Virus record (IMG/VR): IMGVR_UViG_3300032304_001768
Span: 18,327 to 82,326 of that record
DNA from: a virus
DNA: 64,000 bases
Strand: one strand, 5' to 3'
Of this stretch, positions 17,155-56,643 are shown in pieces; within the stretch, counting starts at the first letter, position 1; each line of letters starts with the position of its first letter. Below the pieces are notes generated by a model. That model searched no databases and was not told the origin of the DNA. It was given only the letters and a program-made list of their open reading frames with translations. The position numbers and the translations under genes were made by a program.

Positions 17155-18771
17155 ATGGCACAAATGATACTCGACTTCCCGGAAGGCTACACCCCTTCGA
17201 CACATCAGGCAAAAATAATCACCGAGATTGAAAAGGCCATTGCAAACAATGAGAAATTTATTGTTTGCAATGCTGCGACAGGAACGGGAAAATCATTTTT
17301 CGCTCCTACTTTGGCAAATCACTTCGGAGGACCAACAGCAGAATGGAATTCAAAGGTTGATGATTACTCCATTTATGGAGAAGATGGCGCTGAATTTGCT
17401 GAAAACCAACCGTTGTTTGGTGTGTATGCATTAACAATAACAAAATCCCTACAAGATCAATACAAGCAAAGCTTTGATTTCGCTCAGGTCTTGAAAGGAC
17501 AAAGCAATTATCAATGCAATTACGATGATACCCTGACTGTTGACGTTGCTCCATGTTTGTATCTTCCAGCATTGAAAAATGAATGTTGGTCTTGTAATCG
17601 ATGCTCGTATTACAATGATAGAAACACCATGCTGAAAGCTGAATTCGCGGCTTTGAATTACAGCATGTATTTCTCATTGCCTTCTCATTTGAGGAAACGT
17701 AAAGTGTTGGTGCTGGACGAAGCTAGTGAATTGGAAGATCAGCTTGTCAGTCAATTTACATGTGAGATTGATATCCCATTCTTGATGAAAACCCAAACTG
17801 CGGTTACGGCATTTCCAGATGATGAGAAAAGTGTAAAAGTTCTGACATGGTTAGGCAAGCTAATGGGAGCATTGACCAATTCAATTGAGAGTTACAAAGA
17901 ATATTTCAAAACCAAGAAAGGAAAAGATTTGGAGTTTACTAAAAAGAAGTCTGAATACACCAAACTTGCCAACCTTTCAAAAAGTGTCGAACTACTGATC
18001 AGCACTTTTAATGATAGTCAATACATCGTAGAGCATATCGAAAAGAAAATTCGATTCACCCCTCTCAAGATTGATAAATTGAGCCGTTATTTGTTTGACA
18101 ATGCTGATCATGTTGTGTTGTTGAGTGCAACAATCATTGATCCTGTTAATTTCTGTAAGAATTTGGGCATTCCAAAATACAAATACATTGAAATCGACTC
18201 ACCATTTGATGCGGAAAAGGCTCCCATTTATGTGCTGGCTCACCAAAAGATCAACTTTGGCAATTTAAAGACATTGCTGCCTACCTTGTGCAAGCAAATT
18301 GATGGCATTTTGAATGAGCATGCCGATCAAAAAGGCATCATCCACACCCACACTCAATACATAGCAGACTATATTCGAGACCATGTGAAGAGTAATCGAT
18401 TGATATGTCGTGAAGCTGGCGTTACCAATGAAGATATTCTTGAAAAGCACACCGAAGACGCTGGACCTACGGTATTGGTATCGCCATCAATGACTTATGG
18501 AGTTGACTTAAAGGGTAAATTGGCTGAATTCCAAATCATATTGAAGGCTCCGTGGCTTCCTACCAAAGATGTCAGAGTCGAACGAATGATGAAGTTGGAT
18601 AAAGAGTGGTATTCTAATAAAATGCTATGCACTTTGGTTCAAGCGTGTGGTCGTGGAGTTCGCAGCGTCAAGGATGAATGTGTTACATATGTGCTTGATG
18701 GCAGTATTTTCGATGCTGTATCTCGGAACAAAAAGAAACTTCCCAAGTATTTTATTGATAGATTTCAGTAA
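17155..18771 (+). CDS. DinG/Rad3-like helicase
   Basis: AATGTGKS, KGQSNYQC Cys cluster, LDEA, LSAT, GVDL, QACGRGVRS; TTGACT-N16-TACCAT promoter 6 nt upstream. Confidence 0.85.
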   Translation: MAQMILDFPEGYTPSTHQAKIITEIEKAIANNEKFIVCNAATGTGKSFFAPTLANHFGGPTAEWNSKVDDYSIYGEDGAEFAENQPLFGVYALTITKSLQDQYKQSFDFAQVLKGQSNYQCNYDDTLTVDVAPCLYLPALKNECWSCNRCSYYNDRNTMLKAEFAALNYSMYFSLPSHLRKRKVLVLDEASELEDQLVSQFTCEIDIPFLMKTQTAVTAFPDDEKSVKVLTWLGKLMGALTNSIESYKEYFKTKKGKDLEFTKKKSEYTKLANLSKSVELLISTFNDSQYIVEHIEKKIRFTPLKIDKLSRYLFDNADHVVLLSATIIDPVNFCKNLGIPKYKYIEIDSPFDAEKAPIYVLAHQKINFGNLKTLLPTLCKQIDGILNEHADQKGIIHTHTQYIADYIRDHVKSNRLICREAGVTNEDILEKHTEDAGPTVLVSPSMTYGVDLKGKLAEFQIILKAPWLPTKDVRVERMMKLDKEWYSNKMLCTLVQACGRGVRSVKDECVTYVLDGSIFDAVSRNKKKLPKYFIDRFQ

Positions 18772-19943: not shown

Positions 19944-21782
19944 ATGGCAGGTTCTGATAGTTCATCCACTCCAAATGGAAATAAAAATTACGTAGCAAGC
20001 GACGGTAGAGGATCGACGTTCGATAGATCGATGCAATCCTTTATTAAAAGTCGTTCTCCGTATGCATATAAGGAAGCAGAGACCGACGAAAACACCAATA
20101 CAAAATACAAGTATTTCAAAAACGTCGGCATGCGCCGTTCTGAAGCGATTGCCAAAAATTCAGTAGCTCTAAGCAACGAATACAACAACACTCCATATGG
20201 AACCATCCATCAGGATAAAACATTCGGGGATGTTATGTATGCAAAGGTTTCCGAGGACAAGCCGGGACGTTTGCGTGATTATAGAACTATTGCGGCGTTC
20301 TCCGAAGTGTCTGATGCATTGGATGAAATTTGTGATGCGTGTATCAATACAGATGATAAGGGAAATATTGTAACCATCGATTTTGTAAATGATTCATTGA
20401 AATCCGAAGAGAAGACAAAAATTCAAGATGAATTCAATAAATTCATTTACTTCTTCGACCTCAAGAACAAAGGATGGAGATATTTCAGACAATTGCTTAC
20501 CGAAGGTGAGTTGTTCTTTGAAAACATCATTCACGAAGATTATACAAAACAAGGCATTTTAGCAGTTCAAAATCTACCTGCCGATAATATCGATCCGATT
20601 TATTCCAACATTCAGAACATGTTGATCAAAGGATTCTTGTATAACAAGCCGATTTTCGATAGATACAATACGAAAAAAGTAGATAAGTTTGAACACATTC
20701 CATTTGAAGAAAATCAAATCATCTATGTAAACAGCGAACAATACAATGAAACCAAGGATTTCGTAATTCCGTTTGTTGAAAATTGCCGCCGTGCTTATCG
20801 TCAGTTGAGCATGATCGAAGATAGCGTTGTCATTCACAGAATGGTTCACGCTCCATTGCGTTTTGTTTTCAACGTTGACGTTGGCAGAATGGCAGTTCCA
20901 CAAGCTGAATCATATCTTAAGCGTCTTCAGCAACAATACTGGTCAAGCAAAACATTTGATGTTGATCAAAATGATATTGTCAAAAAATACAATCCACAGT
21001 CCATGTTGGATAGTTATTGGTTTGCCAAGCGCCAAGGTCAAGAAGCAACTTCTGTTCAAACTATCGGTGGACAACCAAGTGATGGCAATTTGGATGTATT
21101 GGATTGGTTCTTAAAGAAATTGTATAGATCTCTCAAGGTTCCTACAAACAGACTCAAAGAAGATTCAGCTAATAGTGATGGTGCTCAAATGCTCAATGAG
21201 GAATTGAAGTTTGCAGATATGGTGATTCGCCATCAACAAAAATTTGCAGTTGGTATTAAAAAAGGATTTATAACTCACTTGAAACTTCGTGGAGTTTTTG
21301 ACGATCTTGATATTGAAGAGCAAGAAATCGAAATTGATTTCGTAAGACCGGGAACGTTCTTCGAAATGCGAGACAATCAGAAGAAGCAACTAAAAGTTGA
21401 TATGTATCACAGCGTCATGGGAACTTCTCATGTTTCTGATACATTTGCCAAGAAGAAGTATCTAGGATGGGACGACAAAGACATTCTTGCAGACCGTGAA
21501 TTTAGACGTAAAGACGCTGAATTTGAATGGGAAATGCAACAAATCGCTACAATGGGTCCAGATTGGAAAGCTCAAGTTATTGCTCAAGCAAATGCTGGTG
21601 CAGAAGGCACACCTGCGGAAGCTCCGATTGGCGGCGGTGGCGGTGGAATAACACCACCTCCAGCGTTTGGTGGTGGTCCTACTGGCGCGGGCGAAGAAGC
21701 TGGGGGTGGAGAAACACCACCACCTTTTGGAGGCGAGCCAAATCAGACTCCACCTCCGGGTGAAGGTCAACCAACTGAATAA
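19944..21782 (+). CDS. portal protein (T4 gp20-like)
   Basis: YRQLSMIEDSVVIHRMVHAP.RFVFNVDVG, SMLDSYWF, KKLYRSLKVP, EELKF. Confidence 0.93.
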   Translation: MAGSDSSSTPNGNKNYVASDGRGSTFDRSMQSFIKSRSPYAYKEAETDENTNTKYKYFKNVGMRRSEAIAKNSVALSNEYNNTPYGTIHQDKTFGDVMYAKVSEDKPGRLRDYRTIAAFSEVSDALDEICDACINTDDKGNIVTIDFVNDSLKSEEKTKIQDEFNKFIYFFDLKNKGWRYFRQLLTEGELFFENIIHEDYTKQGILAVQNLPADNIDPIYSNIQNMLIKGFLYNKPIFDRYNTKKVDKFEHIPFEENQIIYVNSEQYNETKDFVIPFVENCRRAYRQLSMIEDSVVIHRMVHAPLRFVFNVDVGRMAVPQAESYLKRLQQQYWSSKTFDVDQNDIVKKYNPQSMLDSYWFAKRQGQEATSVQTIGGQPSDGNLDVLDWFLKKLYRSLKVPTNRLKEDSANSDGAQMLNEELKFADMVIRHQQKFAVGIKKGFITHLKLRGVFDDLDIEEQEIEIDFVRPGTFFEMRDNQKKQLKVDMYHSVMGTSHVSDTFAKKKYLGWDDKDILADREFRRKDAEFEWEMQQIATMGPDWKAQVIAQANAGAEGTPAEAPIGGGGGGITPPPAFGGGPTGAGEEAGGGETPPPFGGEPNQTPPPGEGQPTE

Positions 21783-21829: not shown

Positions 21830-22972
21830 GTGAGTGAACTTTGCCAGATTACGCCTATTAGCGCATTTATGTCTACTAACCTCAATTCTAAAATTGAGTG
21901 TTATCAACAATTAGGAGAGCGCATAATGAGAATGTTGGGATACCCTATGATAAACGTAGAGTTGCATCCTGACCAACTTTATGATGCAATTTCCATGTCA
22001 GTTGAATTTTTCACAAAATACGCGGGATACACCCAAGAATTTTTGATTTTTGATAGTAACTTATATGAACCTAATAAGGGATTGCGTTTGGATAATCTAT
22101 TCACAGTTGCCAATACAGGATTTAACTTAACTCAAAAGTTGGCAGAACCACAAAGAGCAAATCCTGATTTTACTGCCGATATTCCAGATGCTTTGTATGT
22201 TTCCCTCACAGCAATTCCGCAAAGTTATTTTGCATCCAGCAGTTCTTTGAGCGGTGCCGTCGCTAGTGATGGCATCACAGAACTTCAGATTATTGATCAG
22301 GCGATATTCTCAGAATTGACTGCGTTTAGACCATCTCTTAGCGCATCATTTAAGAAATCTCCTCAGAAAACTCTTTCAGTTCAATGTCAACCAGTTCAAA
22401 ATGCTACCACATTCAACAACATGTTTGACTATGATGTGATGGATTACCGTAAAGTCATGGCTGTAACTGATTTTGAAGAAGGTTCTACAAACGGTATCAA
22501 CACGCTGTTTACTCTTGAGCAGACTATGGCCCAGCAGACATATTTTAGTTATGCTATGGGTAACTATGGATTTGACTTGCTTTCATGGCACACAATGAAA
22601 GATTGGATTGAAACTAGAGAAAAAATGCTTGCAATACGTAAAGATTTTTATTTTGATGAAAGAACCCAATATTTCAGATTAATCCCACAGCCTAAAAATA
22701 CCAGATTCTATGGAGTTATATCATGCTATGTTGAACGTCCATTAAGAGATCTAATCAAAGAAAAGTGGGTATTGGAATACGCAGTCGCACTATCCAAAAT
22801 TATGTGGGGTAGAATTTTAACTAAAATTACAGGAGTGTCTTTGTTGGGTGGTGGATCATTAAATGGTGGTGAAGTATTATCCGAAGGCGTTAATGAAAAG
22901 GAACGTCTTGAAACCTTCTTGATCGAAGGTGGATATGGTGATTTCCAGCCTATCAGCTTATTCGTTGGATAA
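21830..22972 (+). CDS. neck protein (T4 gp13-like)
   Basis: RMLGYPMINVEL..DQL, WVLEYAVALSK.MWG..L.K..GV.L.GG..LNG. Confidence 0.85.
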   Translation: MSELCQITPISAFMSTNLNSKIECYQQLGERIMRMLGYPMINVELHPDQLYDAISMSVEFFTKYAGYTQEFLIFDSNLYEPNKGLRLDNLFTVANTGFNLTQKLAEPQRANPDFTADIPDALYVSLTAIPQSYFASSSSLSGAVASDGITELQIIDQAIFSELTAFRPSLSASFKKSPQKTLSVQCQPVQNATTFNNMFDYDVMDYRKVMAVTDFEEGSTNGINTLFTLEQTMAQQTYFSYAMGNYGFDLLSWHTMKDWIETREKMLAIRKDFYFDERTQYFRLIPQPKNTRFYGVISCYVERPLRDLIKEKWVLEYAVALSKIMWGRILTKITGVSLLGGGSLNGGEVLSEGVNEKERLETFLIEGGYGDFQPISLFVG

Positions 22973-43827: not shown

Positions 43828-43861
43828 AGCGGATAGAACAAGATGGTTAGTTGTCAGTTTC
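43828..43861 (+). pseudogene. degenerate 5' half of a tRNA (Met-like)
   Basis: AGCGGATAGAACAAGATGGTTAGTTGTCAGTTTC resembles a tRNA-Met 5' half; breaks near the anticodon loop. Confidence 0.35.
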
Positions 43862-43886
43862 TGCTGCTAGTGTAAATAACATCAGA

Positions 43887-44429
43887 ATGAAATACACAAT
43901 TTATAAGATTACTAATAATCTCAATGGTAAGTTTTACATCGGTAAACACCAAACAACAAATCCAAATGATACGTATTTTGGATCAGGAAAAGCGATTATC
44001 AATGCTATTAAATTTTACGGTAAGTCAAACTTCACGAAAGAGGTGTTGTTCATTTTCGATTCTGAGTTTGAGATGAACGCTAAAGAAAAAGAACTCATTA
44101 CTGAGGAATTTGTGGCAATGCCAGATACTTACAATCTTGGAATTGGTGGTGAAGGTGGTGCGCATTTTAAAGGTAGACGACATTCTTTAAAAACTAAAGA
44201 GAAAATTTCTGTATCGAATACAGGAAAGTCTCTTTCAGAAGAAAGTAGGCAAAAATCTATTGGGAGAAAACATTCAATAATCACAAAACAAAAAATTTCA
44301 CTTGCTGCAAAATCAAGGAAAGTTTCTGACGAAACAAAACAGAAGATTTCCAAAGCTTTGAAAGGTAGAAAAGTCTCAACAGAGACTAAAGAAAAAATTT
44401 CCAATACGATGAAAGCTCGTAATAAATAA
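43887..44429 (+). CDS. GIY-YIG homing endonuclease with NUMOD3 repeats
   Basis: TIYKITN..NGKFYIGKH, YFGSG, YNL..GG.GG, HS..TK.KIS repeats. Confidence 0.9.
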   Translation: MKYTIYKITNNLNGKFYIGKHQTTNPNDTYFGSGKAIINAIKFYGKSNFTKEVLFIFDSEFEMNAKEKELITEEFVAMPDTYNLGIGGEGGAHFKGRRHSLKTKEKISVSNTGKSLSEESRQKSIGRKHSIITKQKISLAAKSRKVSDETKQKISKALKGRKVSTETKEKISNTMKARNK

Positions 44430-45221: not shown

Positions 45222-45299
45222 GGGGCTGTATCGGAACTGCCTTCTAAGCAGTGGCACCGTAAAGGATCGATGCAGGTTCGAATCCTGCCAGCCCTGCCA
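45222..45299 (+). tRNA. non-canonical D-armless tRNA-Arg(TCT)
   Basis: 7-bp acceptor, ACTGC-CTTCTAA-GCAGT, T arm, GCCA; no D arm. Confidence 0.7.
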
Positions 45300-49282: not shown

Positions 49283-49357
49283 GGGGAATTAGCTGAGTGG
49301 TAAAGCGGCTCTTTTACACGGAGTAGATCGGGGGTTCGATTCCCTCATTCCCTACCA
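49283..49357 (+). tRNA. tRNA-Val(TAC)
   Basis: Cloverleaf, CCA. Confidence 0.9.
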
Positions 49358-49481
49358 TTTAAGTTTATATCGGCATGTGGAGAAATTGGCAGTCTCGGCA
49401 GACTTTAAAGTTTAAATTTATCCTCATGTAGCAATCTAGTTGAGGGGTTGACAAACAATTCCTATGCTACTAAATAATAAC

Positions 49482-50276
49482 ATGTCTGCAAAATTAAGAA
49501 AGTATACCAAAGAATTTTTAGAACCTAAAGTTAAAGAAGTCACATCAATGACTGCTTTAATAGAAAGCATAGGGCTTAAACTTACTGGAGGCAGTTATCG
49601 ACTGTTAAAACAAAGAATAAATCAACATGGAATATCCATAGATCATTTTATTGGACATGGTTGGTCGAAAGGATTAACTAAAGAAACATCAGATACATTA
49701 AATAAAAATTCTCTTAAAACGAGGACGCCCCATGAAAAAGTTTTTTGTATAAATTCCGGGTTTAATTCTAGTAAATTAAAATATAGATTATTAGATCTTG
49801 GTTGGGAAGACAAATGCAATATTTGTGGATTGAAGGACTGGCTAGGTAATCCTATTACTTTACATGTTGATCATATAAATGGAATATCCGGAGATAATAG
49901 ATTGGAAAATTTGCAAATAATTTGTCCCAACTGCCATCAACAAACAGAAACATGGGGTAATAAAAAAGACAAGGGGAGTATGGTGAAATTGCTAAACACG
50001 CCAGACTTAGGATCTGGTGCCGAAGGGCTTGTCGGTTGGAGTCTGACTACTCCCACCAAAAAATGTATAGACTGTGATAAAAAATGCTCTTGTAATGCTA
50101 CAAGATGTAAATCTTGCGAAGCTATTAGAAAAAACAATAATATAAAAAAAAGAGTTTCTAAAGAACAATTAATTTTAGATTTAAAAGATTTAAAAACATA
50201 TGTTGAAATATCTAAAAAATATAATGTATCTGATGTATCCATTAAAAAATGGTGTAAATTTTATAATCTAGTTTAA
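49482..50276 (+). CDS. HNH homing endonuclease inside the tRNA-Leu insert
   Basis: C..CG..DW...ITLHVDHING...DNRLENL.IICPNCH; C-terminal Cys cluster and HTH. Confidence 0.9.
   Translation: MSAKLRKYTKEFLEPKVKEVTSMTALIESIGLKLTGGSYRLLKQRINQHGISIDHFIGHGWSKGLTKETSDTLNKNSLKTRTPHEKVFCINSGFNSSKLKYRLLDLGWEDKCNICGLKDWLGNPITLHVDHINGISGDNRLENLQIICPNCHQQTETWGNKKDKGSMVKLLNTPDLGSGAEGLVGWSLTTPTKKCIDCDKKCSCNATRCKSCEAIRKNNNIKKRVSKEQLILDLKDLKTYVEISKKYNVSDVSIKKWCKFYNLV
49974..50058 (+). tRNA. tRNA-Leu(TAG) embedded in frame within the HNH CDS
   Basis: GGGAGTA/TACTCCC, CCAGA-CTTAGGA-TCTGG, variable arm, ACCA; compensatory C19:G56. Confidence 0.85.
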
Positions 50277-51397: not shown

Positions 51398-51604
51398 ATG
51401 AAAAACATACAATATTATTATGTTGCTTGCGAAGCAACAGATGAACAGAAAGTAAATGCAGAATTTAAACATTATTTCAGATTGTATAAATTTGATGGTG
51501 TTGCTCCTATCCTTGTGGAGCAGGGTGTTGATTTAGTTCCTGTATGGGAAACTAAGTATAATGCTACATTTAATCAAATTAATCCTTATCCACATCTTGA
51601 TTGA
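51398..51604 (+). CDS. hypothetical protein
   Basis: 68-aa ORF filling the gap between tRNAs. Confidence 0.5.
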   Translation: MKNIQYYYVACEATDEQKVNAEFKHYFRLYKFDGVAPILVEQGVDLVPVWETKYNATFNQINPYPHLD

Positions 51605-51611
51605 TAAAAAC

Positions 51612-51691
51612 GCAGTTGTATACCCTTGCGCTACGAACGCATAGAAAGGTTAATCGGATACATGTAGGTTCAATTCCTATCAACTGTGCCA
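51612..51691 (+). tRNA. non-canonical D-armless tRNA-Arg(ACG)
   Basis: GCAGTTG/CAACTGT, TGCG-CTACGAA-CGCA, T arm, GCCA; no D arm. Confidence 0.7.
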
Positions 51692-51696
51692 TTTAT

Positions 51697-51780
51697 GGGG
51701 AAATGGTGGAATGGTATACACGGTAATCTCAAAAATTGTTGCTTAACAGCATGCGGGTTCGAGTCCCGCTTTCCCCACCA
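51697..51780 (+). tRNA. tRNA-Leu(CAA)
   Basis: Class II cloverleaf, CCA. Confidence 0.9.
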
Positions 51781-51782
51781 AT

Positions 51783-51895
51783 GGGCATGACATGGAGTAG
51801 ATGAGGGTTCGATTCCCTCACGGTCCACACTCTAAAAACGGGCCGATTGGTAGTGGCGCGACGGCACTCTTCGGGTTCGAGTCCCGACATGTCCA
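51783..51895 (+). ncRNA. two-headed tRNA-Ala/tmRNA-TLD-like RNA
   Basis: Two T arms; cross-paired acceptor stems GGGCATG/CATGTCC and GGGCCG/CGGTCC, both with G3:U70 and A73. Confidence 0.65.
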
Positions 51896-51913
51896 CAAAC
51901 TTTAAAAAAGACC

Positions 51914-51941
51914 TTGACTTCCTCGAAAGAGGTGTTACAAT
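51914..51941 (+). promoter_or_regulatory. sigma70-type promoter
   Basis: TTGACT-N16-TACAAT with TGn. Confidence 0.6.
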
Positions 51942-52020
51942 CAAGGCATCAAAACAACTTGAGTTTGAAAGAACCAAGGATCGCTAAATAAAAACAGGAG
52001 GGTGAAAGTCCCTCTGCAAC

Positions 52021-52095
52021 GCGCTTATGATGTCAACGGTAGCATGGCAGATTTCCAATCTGAGTGTCAGGATTCGAATTCCTGTGGGCGCACCA
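52021..52095 (+). tRNA. tRNA-Gly(TCC)
   Basis: Cloverleaf, A73, CCA. Confidence 0.85.
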
Positions 52096-52100
52096 AAATC

Positions 52101-52173
52101 CCGAGAGTAGCCTAATTGGTTAAGGCCCTACACTGTGAATGTAGCTATTCGAGTTCGATCCTCGGCTCGCGGA
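52101..52173 (+). tRNA. tRNA-His(GTG) lacking encoded G-1 and CCA
   Basis: CTACA-CTGTGAA-TGTAG; position -1 is C, N73 is A. Confidence 0.85.
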
Positions 52174-52246
52174 GAGGCAGGTATCACACTACTTCCACGT
52201 AGTCTGCCTTGGATGATTCCAATTTGGAATTAACTAAACGTGTGAT
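52174..52246 (+). ncRNA. HDV-like (theta-type) self-cleaving ribozyme
   Basis: P1 GAGGCAG/CTGCCTT with G1.U, P2 ATCACAC/GTGTGAT, P3 ACT/AGT, L3 TCCACGT, P1.1 GG, P4 hairpin, J4/2 C-TAA. Confidence 0.85.
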
Positions 52247-52266
52247 GAACATACTGGAAATTTCCA

Positions 52267-53694
52267 TTATCTGGATACTTCTTCCCAATCCATTGAAGCA
52301 TAAACATCATCGCCATTATCCTTAGAAGCAACAGCCAATGTAAGTTCGTAAGCTGTATTAGTAAATGAATTTCTTTCCAACTGAAATTTAAACAAGGCTT
52401 CTTTCAAGATATCTGTAGTTATGGTCGTTGAATTGCTAGAAGTTAAAAAGCCAGAAGCTAATACGCGACCTCCTGATAAGCTAGTCCCGGTAAGGTTATA
52501 TTCAACACTTGAATTATCAGCAGCAGATAACCAACTACCACCACTCGTTACACCGCTTGTAATAACCCTCCAATTGTAAACACCTGTCCCAACACCCATT
52601 ATTGATAGGGCTGTTAAGATAACAATAGCATCTAACCTAATGGATCTTAAACGAATTGAAACAACAGGTATATATGCACTAGCATTACCAAGATCTTTCG
52701 GAGTTTCAATATCTGTGCCAACTGCTTGTTGCAATCCTCTTAGCTCATAACCACCTTCGGATATAACAGTGCTACAAACTTGCTTCAATAAGCTAGGACT
52801 AGATGTAGCTGCTTTGTTCTCTATTTCATATCTCAATGGCAAAGATGCTGTTGTAATATACGTTGATGCTATTATATTTGCGTGATGAAAATAATGACAT
52901 GGCACAAATTGTCCGTTGATAACAAAACCTGTTCTAACGGTGCCAAGGCCAAGCCATTCAATATCCATGAAAAATATCTGAGCTTTTGTAATATCTAGCA
53001 CCAAACCAGACGGTCCAGAACCATCAAGAGGATCAACATTCCAATTGGCCTGCGCTATACGAGTCGAAGAGAGTGATCCTGACGTTATGCTACGCTCAAC
53101 CATATATAGTGTTGAATCATCAAGCTCCAAGTAAATACCATTGTCATTTCCAAAATATCCAACACGCTGTCTGAGATTTGTTTTAGCTGCGTTGAATGTG
53201 AAAGTGCTCATAATTTGAAGAGACTTACCGGGCTGATATGAAAATACCTTTGTGGTCTCTCTATACACCTTAGAACCACTCAATGCGTCAACTCTCAAAT
53301 CTACCAATCCTTGCGTCTGATTAAATGAAGCAGAAGCGGATGCTGCAACCGTGCCGCCAGTTAGAGTTGCCCACAAGTTATTGTCTGAGTATCTGTGAGA
53401 TGAATCAAATAGAGTCAGGGGTGCAGACATACGAACGCGACCAAATGCATCACTCGCCATATTAAAGTTACCATTAAAACGTGTGGGATCTACAATTACA
53501 ATAGGTTGCGGCTCGCTGTTATCAGATGTATTTACATTATAAGTCAACGTCGCATATTTCGGAAATTCACTCAGAGTCGAAGGCGTTCCATTATATGAAC
53601 TAATATTCGGAAATCTCGCATCGTCAACGATCTGCACATATTTACCATAATCAACAATAGCGGGATTTGCGTTGATATTAGAATTGATAGCCAT
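52267..53694 (-). CDS. putative virion structural protein
   Basis: DAFGR.R...P.TLFDS, YQPGKS, EWLG.G.VR; start 5 nt after a minus-strand TAAATA. Confidence 0.6.
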   Translation of the reverse strand: MAINSNINANPAIVDYGKYVQIVDDARFPNISSYNGTPSTLSEFPKYATLTYNVNTSDNSEPQPIVIVDPTRFNGNFNMASDAFGRVRMSAPLTLFDSSHRYSDNNLWATLTGGTVAASASASFNQTQGLVDLRVDALSGSKVYRETTKVFSYQPGKSLQIMSTFTFNAAKTNLRQRVGYFGNDNGIYLELDDSTLYMVERSITSGSLSSTRIAQANWNVDPLDGSGPSGLVLDITKAQIFFMDIEWLGLGTVRTGFVINGQFVPCHYFHHANIIASTYITTASLPLRYEIENKAATSSPSLLKQVCSTVISEGGYELRGLQQAVGTDIETPKDLGNASAYIPVVSIRLRSIRLDAIVILTALSIMGVGTGVYNWRVITSGVTSGGSWLSAADNSSVEYNLTGTSLSGGRVLASGFLTSSNSTTITTDILKEALFKFQLERNSFTNTAYELTLAVASKDNGDDVYASMDWEEVSR

Positions 53695-54742: not shown

Positions 54743-55432
54743 ATGGCAACACAAGATAATCTAGGTGATAGATGTAAAAAATACGAAAGCACATTCGAGA
54801 ATTATTTTCTCCGCAAGACTCCGATCATTGTTCGGGTGGATGGAAAAGGCTTTAGTAAATGGACAAAGGGTTGCGCCCGTCCATACGATCAATCACTCAT
54901 CGATACCATGTTCAAATCAGCGAAAGAAGTTGCTGCCGAAATGCAAGGATGTAAAGCTTTGTATGCACAGAGCGATGAAGTCACATTCCTACTTCTTGAT
55001 GATGGGGATGAAACCACCCAGCAATGGTTTGGTGGTCGCCAGAATAAAATCGAAAGCATCACATCAGCTATGATGACTGCATTCTTTAATAAGAATTGGA
55101 TTGCTGAAAATCCAACTTCCAATAAGAAGCCAGCTATCTTTGATGCCAGATCATTTCAATGTCCTCGGGAAGATGTAAGCAATGTTTTCTTGTGGCGAGC
55201 TAAAGATTGGCAACGAAACAGTCTCAATATGTATTGCATGCAACACTTCTCTCATAAAGAACTGCAAGGCAAGAATCGTTTTGACAGAGTTGACATGCTC
55301 GCGAAACTTGGAAAGAATTGGGAAGCGGATGTGACTCCGCAGCAACGATTCGGATCTTTCTGGACATTAACAGGTGATCACTTGAATGTTGATCCTACTT
55401 ATGACAATATCAATTTTATAATTTTCTCATGA
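54743..55432 (+). CDS. tRNA(His) guanylyltransferase, Thg1-like
   Basis: VRVDGKGFS, YAQSDEVT, WFGGR..KI.S, FDAR, FLWR..D..RNS. Confidence 0.9.
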   Translation: MATQDNLGDRCKKYESTFENYFLRKTPIIVRVDGKGFSKWTKGCARPYDQSLIDTMFKSAKEVAAEMQGCKALYAQSDEVTFLLLDDGDETTQQWFGGRQNKIESITSAMMTAFFNKNWIAENPTSNKKPAIFDARSFQCPREDVSNVFLWRAKDWQRNSLNMYCMQHFSHKELQGKNRFDRVDMLAKLGKNWEADVTPQQRFGSFWTLTGDHLNVDPTYDNINFIIFS

Positions 55433-55492: not shown

Positions 55493-56009
55493 ATGGCTAA
55501 TATAAAAAGAATAACATACACATGTCCCTTGTGTGAAAAATTACAAGAAACCACGCAATATCGCTTCGATAGAAAAAAAAACTGCGTTTTGTAAAAACTG
55601 TGTAACTATAGGGACTCAAAAAGGAATTAAAAAACCTTTTATAACAGGTGAAAAAAGTGGAAGATGGAAAGGCTGCGAATATATTTCATCTGATGGATAT
55701 AAAATGGTTAAGTGTGATAATCAATTTCATCCATCTGGAAGATTAAAATATAAAAAAGAACACATTCTTATTTTAGAAAATGAATTAGGCCGAGAAATAA
55801 AAACTCAACAGGGAAATATGGGAGAACAAGTCCATCATGTTGACGGTGATAAATTAAATAATAACTTAGAAAATTTAGTTTTATGCTCCGATACAAGAGA
55901 GCATAGGCTCATTCATTGCCAATTAGAAGAAGTTTCTTTTGAATTGGTAAGGTTGGGGGTTATTTCCTTCGATAAAGAAACAAAACAATATAAAATAAAT
56001 GCAAGTTGA
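55493..56009 (+). pseudogene. HNH endonuclease interrupted by a frameshift at an A9 run
   Basis: CPLC in the ATG-55493 frame; CKNC and VHHVDGDKLNN..ENL in the +1 frame. Confidence 0.65.
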
Positions 56010-56643
56010 ACTATTAAATCATTTTGGAAGCGATCTAACCATCGCTAATATCGCCCGCGTGTCTTATGACAAAGAATCATCAGAATTTGGAGACAAAGAT
56101 GCGAAACTGTTAAAATTTCTGGCCGAACATAAACATACATCACCTTTTAGACACGCTCAATTACAATTTAGAATAGAATGTCCTGTTTTTGTAGAACGTC
56201 AACTATTCACTCATCAAATTGGATGGGCAAGAAATTCTATTTCTGGAAGATATGTTGATTTCTCAGACTCTTATTGGCTTCCCAATCAATTACGTTATCA
56301 GTCAAAAGACAGCAAACAAGGAAGTTCAGGCGATGTCGAATCAATATTAAATGATGAGTTATTAGAAGAAATGCGAGCCGTTGTGTCTCATGCACAAGAA
56401 GTTTATTCCAAAATGTGTAATGCTGGAGTGTCTAAAGAACAATGTCGTATTATTTTACCATTGGCATTAGAAACAAAATTCATTTGGACTGGTAGTATGC
56501 ATGCTTTTATGCATTTATGTCAACTTCGTTTGAAAGCAGATACTCAAAAAGAAACAAGAGATATTGTATCTGAAATGTTGGAATTGGTAAAGAACATCGA
56601 AGGCAATCCTTTCGAACACACTTTAAAAGCTTGGGGATACTAA
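55999..56643 (+). CDS. thyX: flavin-dependent thymidylate synthase
   Basis: ARVSY, HTSPF, FVERQL..H, NSISGRY, R.ILP, LR....Q.E.R. Confidence 0.92.
   Translation: MQVELLNHFGSDLTIANIARVSYDKESSEFGDKDAKLLKFLAEHKHTSPFRHAQLQFRIECPVFVERQLFTHQIGWARNSISGRYVDFSDSYWLPNQLRYQSKDSKQGSSGDVESILNDELLEEMRAVVSHAQEVYSKMCNAGVSKEQCRIILPLALETKFIWTGSMHAFMHLCQLRLKADTQKETRDIVSEMLELVKNIEGNPFEHTLKAWGY

Follow-up and report, generated by a model that had tools for sequence, protein, structure and literature searches.

A phage small-RNA gene family with two alanine-type, tRNA-like heads that exchange their acceptor strands

Positions 51783-51895 on the + strand of the window, i.e. of the whole 64,000-nt stretch analysed here (positions 18,327 to 82,326 of the IMG/VR virus record IMGVR_UViG_3300032304_001768), hold a 113-nt gene that combines two T arms with two acceptor-type stems pairing only crosswise. 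Judging from the sequences of its relatives, this element is almost certainly a real gene belonging to a conserved phage family of small RNAs with a strand-swapped, two-headed fold. Both stems display G1-C72, G2-C71, G3.U70 and an A discriminator (A73), and the reading of 51783-51895 revealed no anticodon arm, D stem, tag frame or message. The family is uncatalogued in Rfam, and no description of it was found in the full-text literature. The element can be described as two units in a row. Unit alpha is made up of the 5' strand of head A, a D-loop-like linker, the T arm of head B and the 3' strand of head B. Unit beta follows with the 5' strand of head B, a D-loop-like linker with a small hairpin, the T arm of head A and the 3' strand of head A. 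The successive parts are as follows.

51783..51789, + strand: 5' strand of the outer acceptor-type stem (head A), GGGCATG; it pairs with 51888-94, and positions 4-7 covary family-wide
51790..51802, + strand: linker 1, 13 nt, unstructured (no fold predicted) and D-loop-like, with TGG at 51793-95
51803..51819, + strand: T arm of head B, GAGGG TTCGATT CCCTC; family-wide, both partners vary in 3 of the 5 stem pairs
51820..51827, + strand: 3' strand of the inner stem (head B), ACGGTCC, plus discriminator A 51827; it pairs with 51840-46, with covariation
51828..51839, + strand: spacer between the units, CACTCTAAAAAC, 12 nt, either a closing loop or an excised trailer/leader; sequence unconserved
51840..51846, + strand: 5' strand of the inner stem (head B), GGGCCGA, with covariation; the preceding base is C
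51847..51870, + strand: linker 2, 24 nt, with a D-loop-like start (TGG 51848-50) followed by hairpin H; based on GG conservation and on close relatives
51855-51868, + strand: hairpin H, GGCGC GACG GCACT; the stem varies with pairing kept in six close relatives
51871..51887, + strand: T arm of head A, TCGGG TTCGAGT CCCGA; based on sequence, fold and family alignment
51888..51895, + strand: 3' strand of the outer stem, CATGTCC, plus discriminator A 51895; based on pairing and covariation

The outer stem joins GGGCATG (51783-89) and CATGTCC (51888-94) through 7 bp including G3.U70, and A 51895 follows. The inner stem has 6 bp, including the G.U, between CGGTCC (51821-26), which precedes A 51827, and the downstream GGGCCG (51840-45); its seventh position is A.A in the window copy and paired in other members. 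Pairing within the same unit is limited to GGGC/GTCC in the window copy. The original prediction had described both stems in this way, with the inner one in permuted order, together with two canonical T arms, no anticodon and the marks of alanyl-tRNA synthetase (AlaRS) recognition, G3:U70 and A73, on both heads, and the sequence bears out all of these features. It had also noted the absence of a tag-reading frame, in agreement with ARAGORN, which detects neither a tRNA nor a tmRNA at 51783-51895 and gives no tag peptide. The minimum free energy fold of the window copy shows both cross stems and both T arms. Nevertheless, this fold alone is not significant (z = -1.70), as 13 of 200 shuffled sequences fold as well. 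That the structure goes beyond chance is thus established by the relatives and not by the single-sequence fold.

To collect relatives, viral, genome and metagenome DNA was scanned with a pattern made of two T loops, TCCA after each of them and GGG in between. Viral contigs contributed 19 matching stretches, bacterial and archaeal genomes 93 and metagenome contigs at least 119. Matches were evaluated with a two-stem test, in which both crosswise stems must have at least six contiguous pairs and be better than same-unit pairing, and the control consisted in shuffling four bases in each 3' strand. Of the 225 distinct matches listed, 18 pass the test, versus a mean of 4.6 and a maximum of 10 with shuffled 3' strands. 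No true members were found among the 93 bacterial and archaeal genome stretches matching the pattern; most of these are genes for tRNA-Ala or tmRNA whose 3' end is duplicated just behind them, or nested tRNAs in Patescibacteria.

A covariance model, the check proposed with the original prediction, was built from 11 members (model R1) and run over all collected loci. It added L361 and confirmed L375, L286 and three exact duplicates. L342, L351 and L365, which are identical to L172, L167 and L164, were counted once. The score of the window copy is 93.8 bits, with that copy being part of the seed, and the non-seed members L375, L167, L361, L286, L174 and L010 obtain 56.7 to 78 bits. Tandem tRNA pairs and att-like duplicates mostly reach up to ~50 bits, and the non-members L179 and L276 ~55 bits. 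Altogether, we collected at least 20 distinct members with covarying crosswise stems, all from uncultured phage and metagenome contigs. They comprise 19 core members and the atypical L078, which was held apart because its outer stem has A3-U70. Because every match had to carry TCCA at the two 3' ends and GGG at the inner 5' strand, free evidence is confined to the outer GGG and stem positions 4-7. The outer 5' GGG is found in all 19 core members, and L078 reads GGA.

Several candidates were discarded. L196 and L313 passed a relaxed filter and look like duplicates or other arrangements. L169, L255, L276, L341 and L371 are tandem copies in which same-unit pairing equals crosswise pairing. L321 had passed the filter, but its first linker measures 62 nt, its outer 5' strand reads GGA and its R1 score is only 46.8 bits. 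In L017, the inner stem is good, but the outer 5' strand was not found. We also scanned for two T loops without the alanine constraint, and 16 of the 134 matches listed pass the two-stem filter. Five of these are of the alanine type, i.e. the window copy (L001), L010, L018, L037 and, for its inner head alone, L078. The remaining 11 have 5' strands that do not start with G.

Searches of known sequences returned little. No Rfam family reaches its gathering score over 51783-51895. BLAST of the window region against 50,697 phage records yielded nothing similar beyond tRNA pieces, and BLAST of the L381 tmRNA with its element, and of six members, against the same records yielded no full-length relative. 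R1 found no hit at E up to 1e-6 in five arbitrarily chosen records (RpAliso, SCTP-2, LR756502, Vibrio phage 1.081.O and T4), and it gives only 24.3 bits on cyanophage S-SSM7. A literature search over the main text of articles retrieved no paper on a two-headed or cross-paired tRNA-like phage RNA. The initial statement that no RNA of such topology has been described agrees with this search and with Rfam. The supplementary tables of one study (PMC11915505) list 79 phage tmRNAs, 72 entries of the class 'permuted, no CDS' and 9 of the class 'standard, no CDS'; members of the family might be among them under a different name.

The main evidence for the crosswise fold comes from stem positions 4-7 of the 19 core members, anchored on the T loops. 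Read crosswise, these positions form 139 standard pairs out of 152, versus 54 of 152 for same-unit pairing, and the strand-swapped topology predicted at the outset is thus borne out. When the 3' strands were re-dealt among members, the mean was 72 and the maximum 96, and none of 10000 trials reached 139. In the model-made alignment of 18 sequences (A3), 95.1% of the cells pair; both partners vary in 14 of the 24 pairs, and double changes are present in 106 cells. For covariation, A3 scores 0.593 versus 0.122 for shuffled alignments, with 0 of 500 shuffles reaching the former value and slid controls at 0.109 or below. Since A3 was fitted to the structure, the independent T-loop-anchored count weighs more. 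Lastly, a DNA contig from a close strain (run X5) shows nine differences inside the element and none in the four acceptor strands. Its T arm B has the form TGGGG/CCCCT, the changes being compensatory.

Both linkers harbour GG, usually as TGG, 3-7 nt past each 5' strand (17/20 and 19/20 members, respectively), and they lack a D stem. GG is present within the first 9 nt of linker 1 in 17 of the 20 members (shuffle mean 11.1; 4 of 1000 shuffles reach 17), and TGG within the first 9 nt of linker 2 in 17 of the 20 as well, a count reached by 0 of 1000 shuffles. The Rfam tmRNA model aligns linker 1 to the single-stranded positions that follow the acceptor 5' strand, and the tmRNA consensus has a comparable single-stranded, GG-containing stretch right after that strand.

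The two heads had also been thought to be linked by a helix between GGAGT (51794-98) and ACTCT (51866-70). These segments are complementary, but at chance level, and they do not form a conserved helix. In none of the 20 members is the duplex energy between the two linkers better than that of shuffled sequences (mean z = +0.13), and L172, L018 and the X5 contig read GGTGT while ACTCT stays unchanged. Based on these energies and relatives, we ruled out the conserved helix. In A3, 60.3% of its cells are paired, against 31-52% for slid controls, which is equivocal. In the six closest relatives, inspection of the A3 rows indicated that ACTCT is partly used in the local hairpin H. The window copy has a C.A mismatch in that hairpin (51857/51866), and the relative's contig reads T at 51857. 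Family-wide, hairpin H is not significant by energy (mean z = -0.31, p = 0.14) or by pair counts (61.4% of cells paired); it is upheld only for the close relatives of the window copy.

We then considered the ends of the RNA. CCA is encoded past the inner A in 5 of 19 members (binomial p = 9e-6) and past the outer A in 9 of 19 (p = 4e-12), with about 0.3 members expected by chance. The window copy encodes CCA at neither end, its inner A being followed by CAC and its outer A by CAA; 27 of the 28 tRNAs that ARAGORN predicts in the window do encode it. The base that precedes the outer 5' strand is T in 14/19 members, and that preceding the inner 5' strand is T or C in 16/19. A pyrimidine at this position fits the known preference of RNase P. 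The spacer between the units is 4-12 nt long across the 19 members, with the shortest found in L172, and a length of only 4 nt is as compatible with a closed loop as with a cleavage site. The CCA and N-1 statistics of the relatives suggest that cleavage at the inner junction may be favoured. Cofolding predicts that a two-piece duplex is preferred over separate folds by 7.5 to 18 kcal/mol in all 20 members. Thus, the proposal of a two-piece RNA receives indirect support from the relatives through their CCA, their N-1 bases and the predicted duplex, while the lack of encoded CCA in the window copy stands against it. Based on these sequence features, we consider it an even call whether the RNA would be both processed into two pieces and charged.

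Each head presents the features of the tRNA-like domain (TLD) of tmRNA, namely G3.U70, the A discriminator, a T arm and a D-loop analogue devoid of a D stem. The 113-nt element contains no mRNA-like domain, resume codon or pseudoknots, its interior being the second head. With the Rfam tmRNA model (RF00023), 51783-51898 score 14.7 bits, and only the model ends align, with 312 positions skipped; with tmRNA_permuted (RF04321), 51803-51851 score 13.8 bits. Both values are far below the cut-off of 47, and the tmRNA scan suggested along with the prediction thus failed to assign the element to these families. The weak alignments on both heads do support the proposed resemblance to the TLD. The inner heads of other members obtain 39 to 40.8 bits with RF04321, still below the cut-off.

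Genes for full tmRNAs, standard or permuted and scoring above the Rfam cut-off, are present in 7 of 12 carrier phage records, and the element begins 5 nt (L018) and 10 nt (L381) after such a gene. This shows that it is an extra gene beside tmRNA and not a decayed replacement. SmpB is encoded in one carrier record, a 516-kb phage. Neither tmRNA nor SmpB was found in the window's own 82-kb record, which is estimated to be 39% complete. The co-occurrence with tmRNA (7/12 carriers versus 10/50 comparison records chosen by the two-T-loop pattern, not at random; p = 0.013) was rejected as a functional clue, as the enrichment vanishes among records of at least 75 kb (5/8 versus 9/21, p = 0.43).

In the window, the element starts 2 nt past the CCA end of tRNA-Leu(CAA) (51697-51780), and further tRNAs are found on its other side. 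The window harbours 28 tRNA genes according to ARAGORN and 26 according to the Rfam tRNA model, and the element is single-copy in it. Similarly, 18 of the 20 member loci hold tRNA genes, and no recurrent linked protein gene was detected beside the element in the member loci. A promoter-like site (TTGACT, 16 nt, TACAAT) is located at 51914-41, 19 nt downstream; such sites are not above shuffles in the region (8 versus a mean of 6.1). A fifth of the sampled words of 51400-52300 recur in one metatranscriptome (X7). The three X7 contigs correspond to 51443-51625, 51958-52016 and 52187-52300, with none over the element, and contigs of this kind cannot show small RNAs.

Among the closest known systems, mycobacteriophage DS6A encodes a molecule that amounts to little more than a TLD (PMC4131195, PMC11915505). 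As reported there, tmRNA in E. coli was strongly inhibited by a DS6A-like molecule irrespective of whether it could be charged, with titration of SmpB as a possible cause. Like the element, the DS6A mini-tmRNA is phage-encoded, with an alanine-type acceptor stem and a T arm but neither tag frame nor pseudoknots, and titration of SmpB is a plausible mode of action for both by analogy. In contrast with the element, whose two heads exchange strands, DS6A has, according to its published description, one head with ordinary same-unit pairing.

Permuted tmRNAs (RF04321, RF01849-51; phage copies e.g. in S-SSM7) share the arrangement of the inner head, in which the T arm and 3' strand precede the 5' strand with a short segment between them. 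This layout is described as being cut by tRNA-processing enzymes into two base-paired pieces (PMC11915505). Unlike permuted tmRNAs, the element has no coding piece, resume codon, tag frame or pseudoknots, and the ends of its permuted unit are closed by the second head. With tRNA-Ala and its minihelices, it shares G3.U70, A73, the stacking of a 7-bp acceptor stem upon a T stem of 5 bp, the TTCGANT loop and the location in a tRNA array. It differs in having two heads in one transcript, and the window copy lacks an anticodon arm and a D stem and is silent in ARAGORN and in the Rfam tRNA model (RF00005).

Two other types of RNA bear a more limited resemblance. YrlA-type Y RNAs contain a tRNA-like module in which the T arm is followed by a closed acceptor-like stem in permuted order. 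They have one T arm and a long Ro60-binding terminal stem, whereas the element has a 7-bp alanine-type acceptor stem with a free discriminator, and no Y RNA family was detected in the Rfam scan of the element at E up to 10. The T4 rnaC and rnaD (species 1 and 2 RNAs) are likewise small, stable and without an assigned function, and their genes lie in the T4 tRNA cluster; rnaC ends with a T arm. In contrast with the element, rnaC has a single T arm, rnaD has none, and neither has cross-paired acceptor stems.

We propose the following scenario. Extrapolating from the biology of tRNA and tmRNA, the element would be transcribed together with the tRNA array. RNase P would cut before both GGG starts, the 3' ends would be trimmed and the CCA-adding enzyme would complete them. 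The product would be one RNA or, more likely, a two-piece duplex of 45 and 56 nt. G3.U70 and A73 would make each head a substrate of AlaRS, as they do for tRNA-Ala minihelices and tmRNA. Considering the features that are kept, the charged heads may be recognized by EF-Tu, and SmpB is a candidate partner in view of the tmRNA-like linkers. As a bivalent mimic of the TLD, the RNA could compete for SmpB, EF-Tu or AlaRS and tune or block trans-translation of the host during infection. By analogy with DS6A, such a role in trans-translation is possible, albeit short of probable. We rank it as the most likely role, ahead of a decoy of tRNA ends, a cis-acting processing element and a tag-less helper of ribosome rescue, because the DS6A-like, TLD-only RNA inhibited tmRNA in the experiments reported (PMC4131195, PMC11915505). 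The presence of full tmRNA in 7 of 12 carriers and of SmpB in one is awkward for a pure inhibitor of trans-translation. Taken as a whole, i.e. family fold, processing with charging and TLD mimicry together, this explanation is offered tentatively, being somewhat more apt to fail in one of its parts than to hold throughout.

Mimics of tRNA show which parts of the translation machinery viruses manipulate. This family retains and doubles the features read by AlaRS, EF-Tu, RNase P and SmpB, while the parts that read codons or serve as message are gone. If the RNA is charged and binds SmpB, it would represent a natural, compact and bivalent modulator of ribosome rescue, a process also pursued as an antibiotic target. 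If it is a two-piece duplex, it would be a rare case of natural RNA domain swapping and a model for the origin of permuted or split tRNA-like genes. A stricter version, which we regard as doubtful, is a true heterodimer of ~45 and ~56 nt in which neither piece could form an acceptor stem by itself and the assembled, rigid particle would offer two CCA ends for alanine. A bivalent aminoacyl-RNA of this sort would be a novel type of molecule. It could fill a pair of SmpB, EF-Tu or AlaRS sites simultaneously, or supply two alanines to an enzyme whose use of aminoacyl-tRNA is independent of the ribosome. For annotation purposes, the gene recurs in large uncultured phages and is invisible to ARAGORN and Rfam.

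An unlikely alternative to TLD mimicry, which nevertheless fares best among the others, is that the two alanine-type ends soak up a defence or stress factor, such as acceptor-end toxins or 3' exonucleases like RNase R, and thereby protect phage and host tRNAs. The element sits in a large array of 28 tRNAs, and it has kept only the half of a tRNA that is seen by acceptor-end enzymes. Large phage tRNA arrays are commonly read as a supply or as a counter-defence tool. We know of no defence system that targets a two-headed shape. For a generic decoy, two heads of the alanine type would be superfluous; the family nevertheless retains G3.U70 and A73, in part because the pattern forced them, and no recurrent protein gene adjoins the element. 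There is a precedent in a phage anti-CRISPR that is described as using tRNA or tmRNA fragments that bind RNase R (PMC11662646), so that structured pieces of these RNAs can serve in counter-defence.

The RNA might also act in cis, uncharged and in one piece, as a tRNA-shaped junction that recruits RNase P and 3' trimming or blocks exonucleases. Its location directly 3' of tRNA-Leu, with a 2-nt gap, would suit such a processing or stability element, as would spacers of 4-12 nt that can serve as loops and the lack of encoded CCA at either end in the window phage. The promoter-like site 19 nt downstream further means that the element may close a transcription unit, but sites of this type are no commoner there than in shuffled sequence. 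A punctuation mark would need neither the CCA encoded in part of the family (inner end 5/19, outer end 9/19) nor the conserved alanine marks, and we find this explanation quite unlikely.

Less probable again is a helper in ribosome rescue, i.e. a tag-less mini-tmRNA that would work with SmpB and EF-Tu alongside the phage's own tmRNA, take the nascent chain on its alanine and free the stalled ribosome without adding a degradation tag. Tag-less rescue would be in line with the CDS-less tmRNAs reported in mitochondria, plastids and phage DS6A (PMC11915505). The carriers with a full tmRNA, the two loci in which one adjoins the element and the carrier that encodes SmpB are also consistent with this idea, but co-occurrence with tmRNA is unspecific among records of at least 75 kb. 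Moreover, the only TLD-only molecule reported as tested (PMC4131195) inhibited tmRNA, and a second head in the place where SmpB replaces the anticodon arm may clash with the ribosome.

It is barely credible that the element has no function and consists of two decayed tRNA or tmRNA fragments cross-pairing by chance: the insignificant single-sequence fold, the likeness of 51790-51820 to a tRNA of the same phage and the about 4.6 of 225 matches that pass pattern and filter by chance would allow it, but 20 diverged members retain both cross stems through double changes, all nine differences in the relative's contig are outside the four acceptor strands, and the GG motifs, CCA and N-1 signals are conserved.

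As to where the family comes from, some features point to tmRNA and others to tRNA. On the tmRNA side, there are the weak alignments to the Rfam models and the inner head of L175, which is 88.9% identical over 35 nt to the permuted tmRNA junction of cyanophage S-SSM7, the only informative partial BLAST match. On the tRNA side, the 31-nt segment 51790-51820 matches the 3' half of the tRNA-Val of the same phage at 91% identity, and two members are less reduced than the window copy. In L078, a complete anticodon arm with UGC takes the place of hairpin H, and L168 has a complete D arm. By sequence, both look like intermediates derived from tRNA-Ala, and they suggest that the family may have originated by domain swapping between duplicated top halves of tRNA-Ala or tmRNA.

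Two loci carry variants of the two-headed RNA in which parts of a conventional tRNA are retained:

L078, 5580-5722: variant two-headed RNA, with an identical copy in L170
L168, 1111-1228: variant two-headed RNA

The second unit of the L078 variant keeps a full anticodon arm, with the alanine anticodon UGC, and its outer stem has A3-U70. The first unit of the L168 variant retains a full D arm, and its units are joined by a 5-bp helix (CCGTC/GACGG). These two variants may be evolutionary intermediates derived from tRNA-Ala. The element in the window also resembles one of the phage's own tRNAs, as its linker 1 and the T arm of its inner head (51790-51820) are 91% identical over 31 nt to positions 49316-49347, which comprise the 3' strand of the anticodon stem, the variable loop and the T arm of a tRNA-Val. 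This likeness could stem from a common origin, from gene conversion or from conservation of the T arm.

Analyses of the surroundings of the element yielded the following features:

Window 51914-51941, + strand: promoter-like site (TTGACT, 16 nt, TACAAT, with TG preceding the second hexamer)
Window 52021-52092, + strand: Rfam tRNA model match, 48.3 bits, no ARAGORN call
Window 45222-45296, + strand: Rfam tRNA model match, 41.1 bits, no ARAGORN call

The promoter-like site lies 19 nt 3' of the element, ahead of the tRNA genes that come next; the count of such sites in the region of the element is not above that of shuffles. Pfam analyses of the context of the tRNA cluster (window 54743-55432, 55999-56643, 43851-44429, 49464-50276 and 55533-56009) identified a Thg1-like tRNA-His guanylyltransferase (100 bits), ThyX (160 bits) and, scattered among the tRNA genes, three genes of the homing-endonuclease type (GIY-YIG/NUMOD3, HNH and HNH_3).

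G008, a 516-kb jumbo phage record with terminal repeats that holds the member locus L174, carries the two-headed RNA together with genes for a permuted tmRNA (97.5 bits) and SmpB (172 bits). The tmRNA of another phage is overlapped by a CDS, SSSM7_025, annotated as 'hypothetical protein'; ARAGORN calls it a permuted tmRNA with a tag peptide.

G008, 22414-22839 and 332963-333252: jumbo phage with SmpB, permuted tmRNA and two-headed RNA
L401, 1434-1785, i.e. NC_015287 (Synechococcus phage S-SSM7) ~20967-21318: permuted cyanobacterial-type tmRNA, RF01851, 109.4 bits

Other arrangements with nested or double T arms were found elsewhere. In seven viral contigs (L008, L009, L014, L033, L040, L042 and L043), a tmRNA-like 3' end (..CCTCCACCA) is directly followed by a T-arm RNA, with an 11-bp terminal stem closing it. 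In Patescibacteria/Saccharibacteria contigs (L193, L215, L218, L230 and L276), a complete tRNA-Ala is enclosed by a helix of ~12 bp, and this helix in turn has a frame made up of another acceptor-type strand pair and a further T arm, which ends in ..GGTCC-A. This nesting of a tRNA in a tRNA-like frame is repeated across several candidate-phyla-radiation genomes. Among the matches listed, L157, L156, L096 and L062 are further nested double-T-arm candidates devoid of alanine marks. The closing loops of their inner stems are only 2-5 nt long, and they may represent a different class of phage tRNA-like RNAs, or chance.
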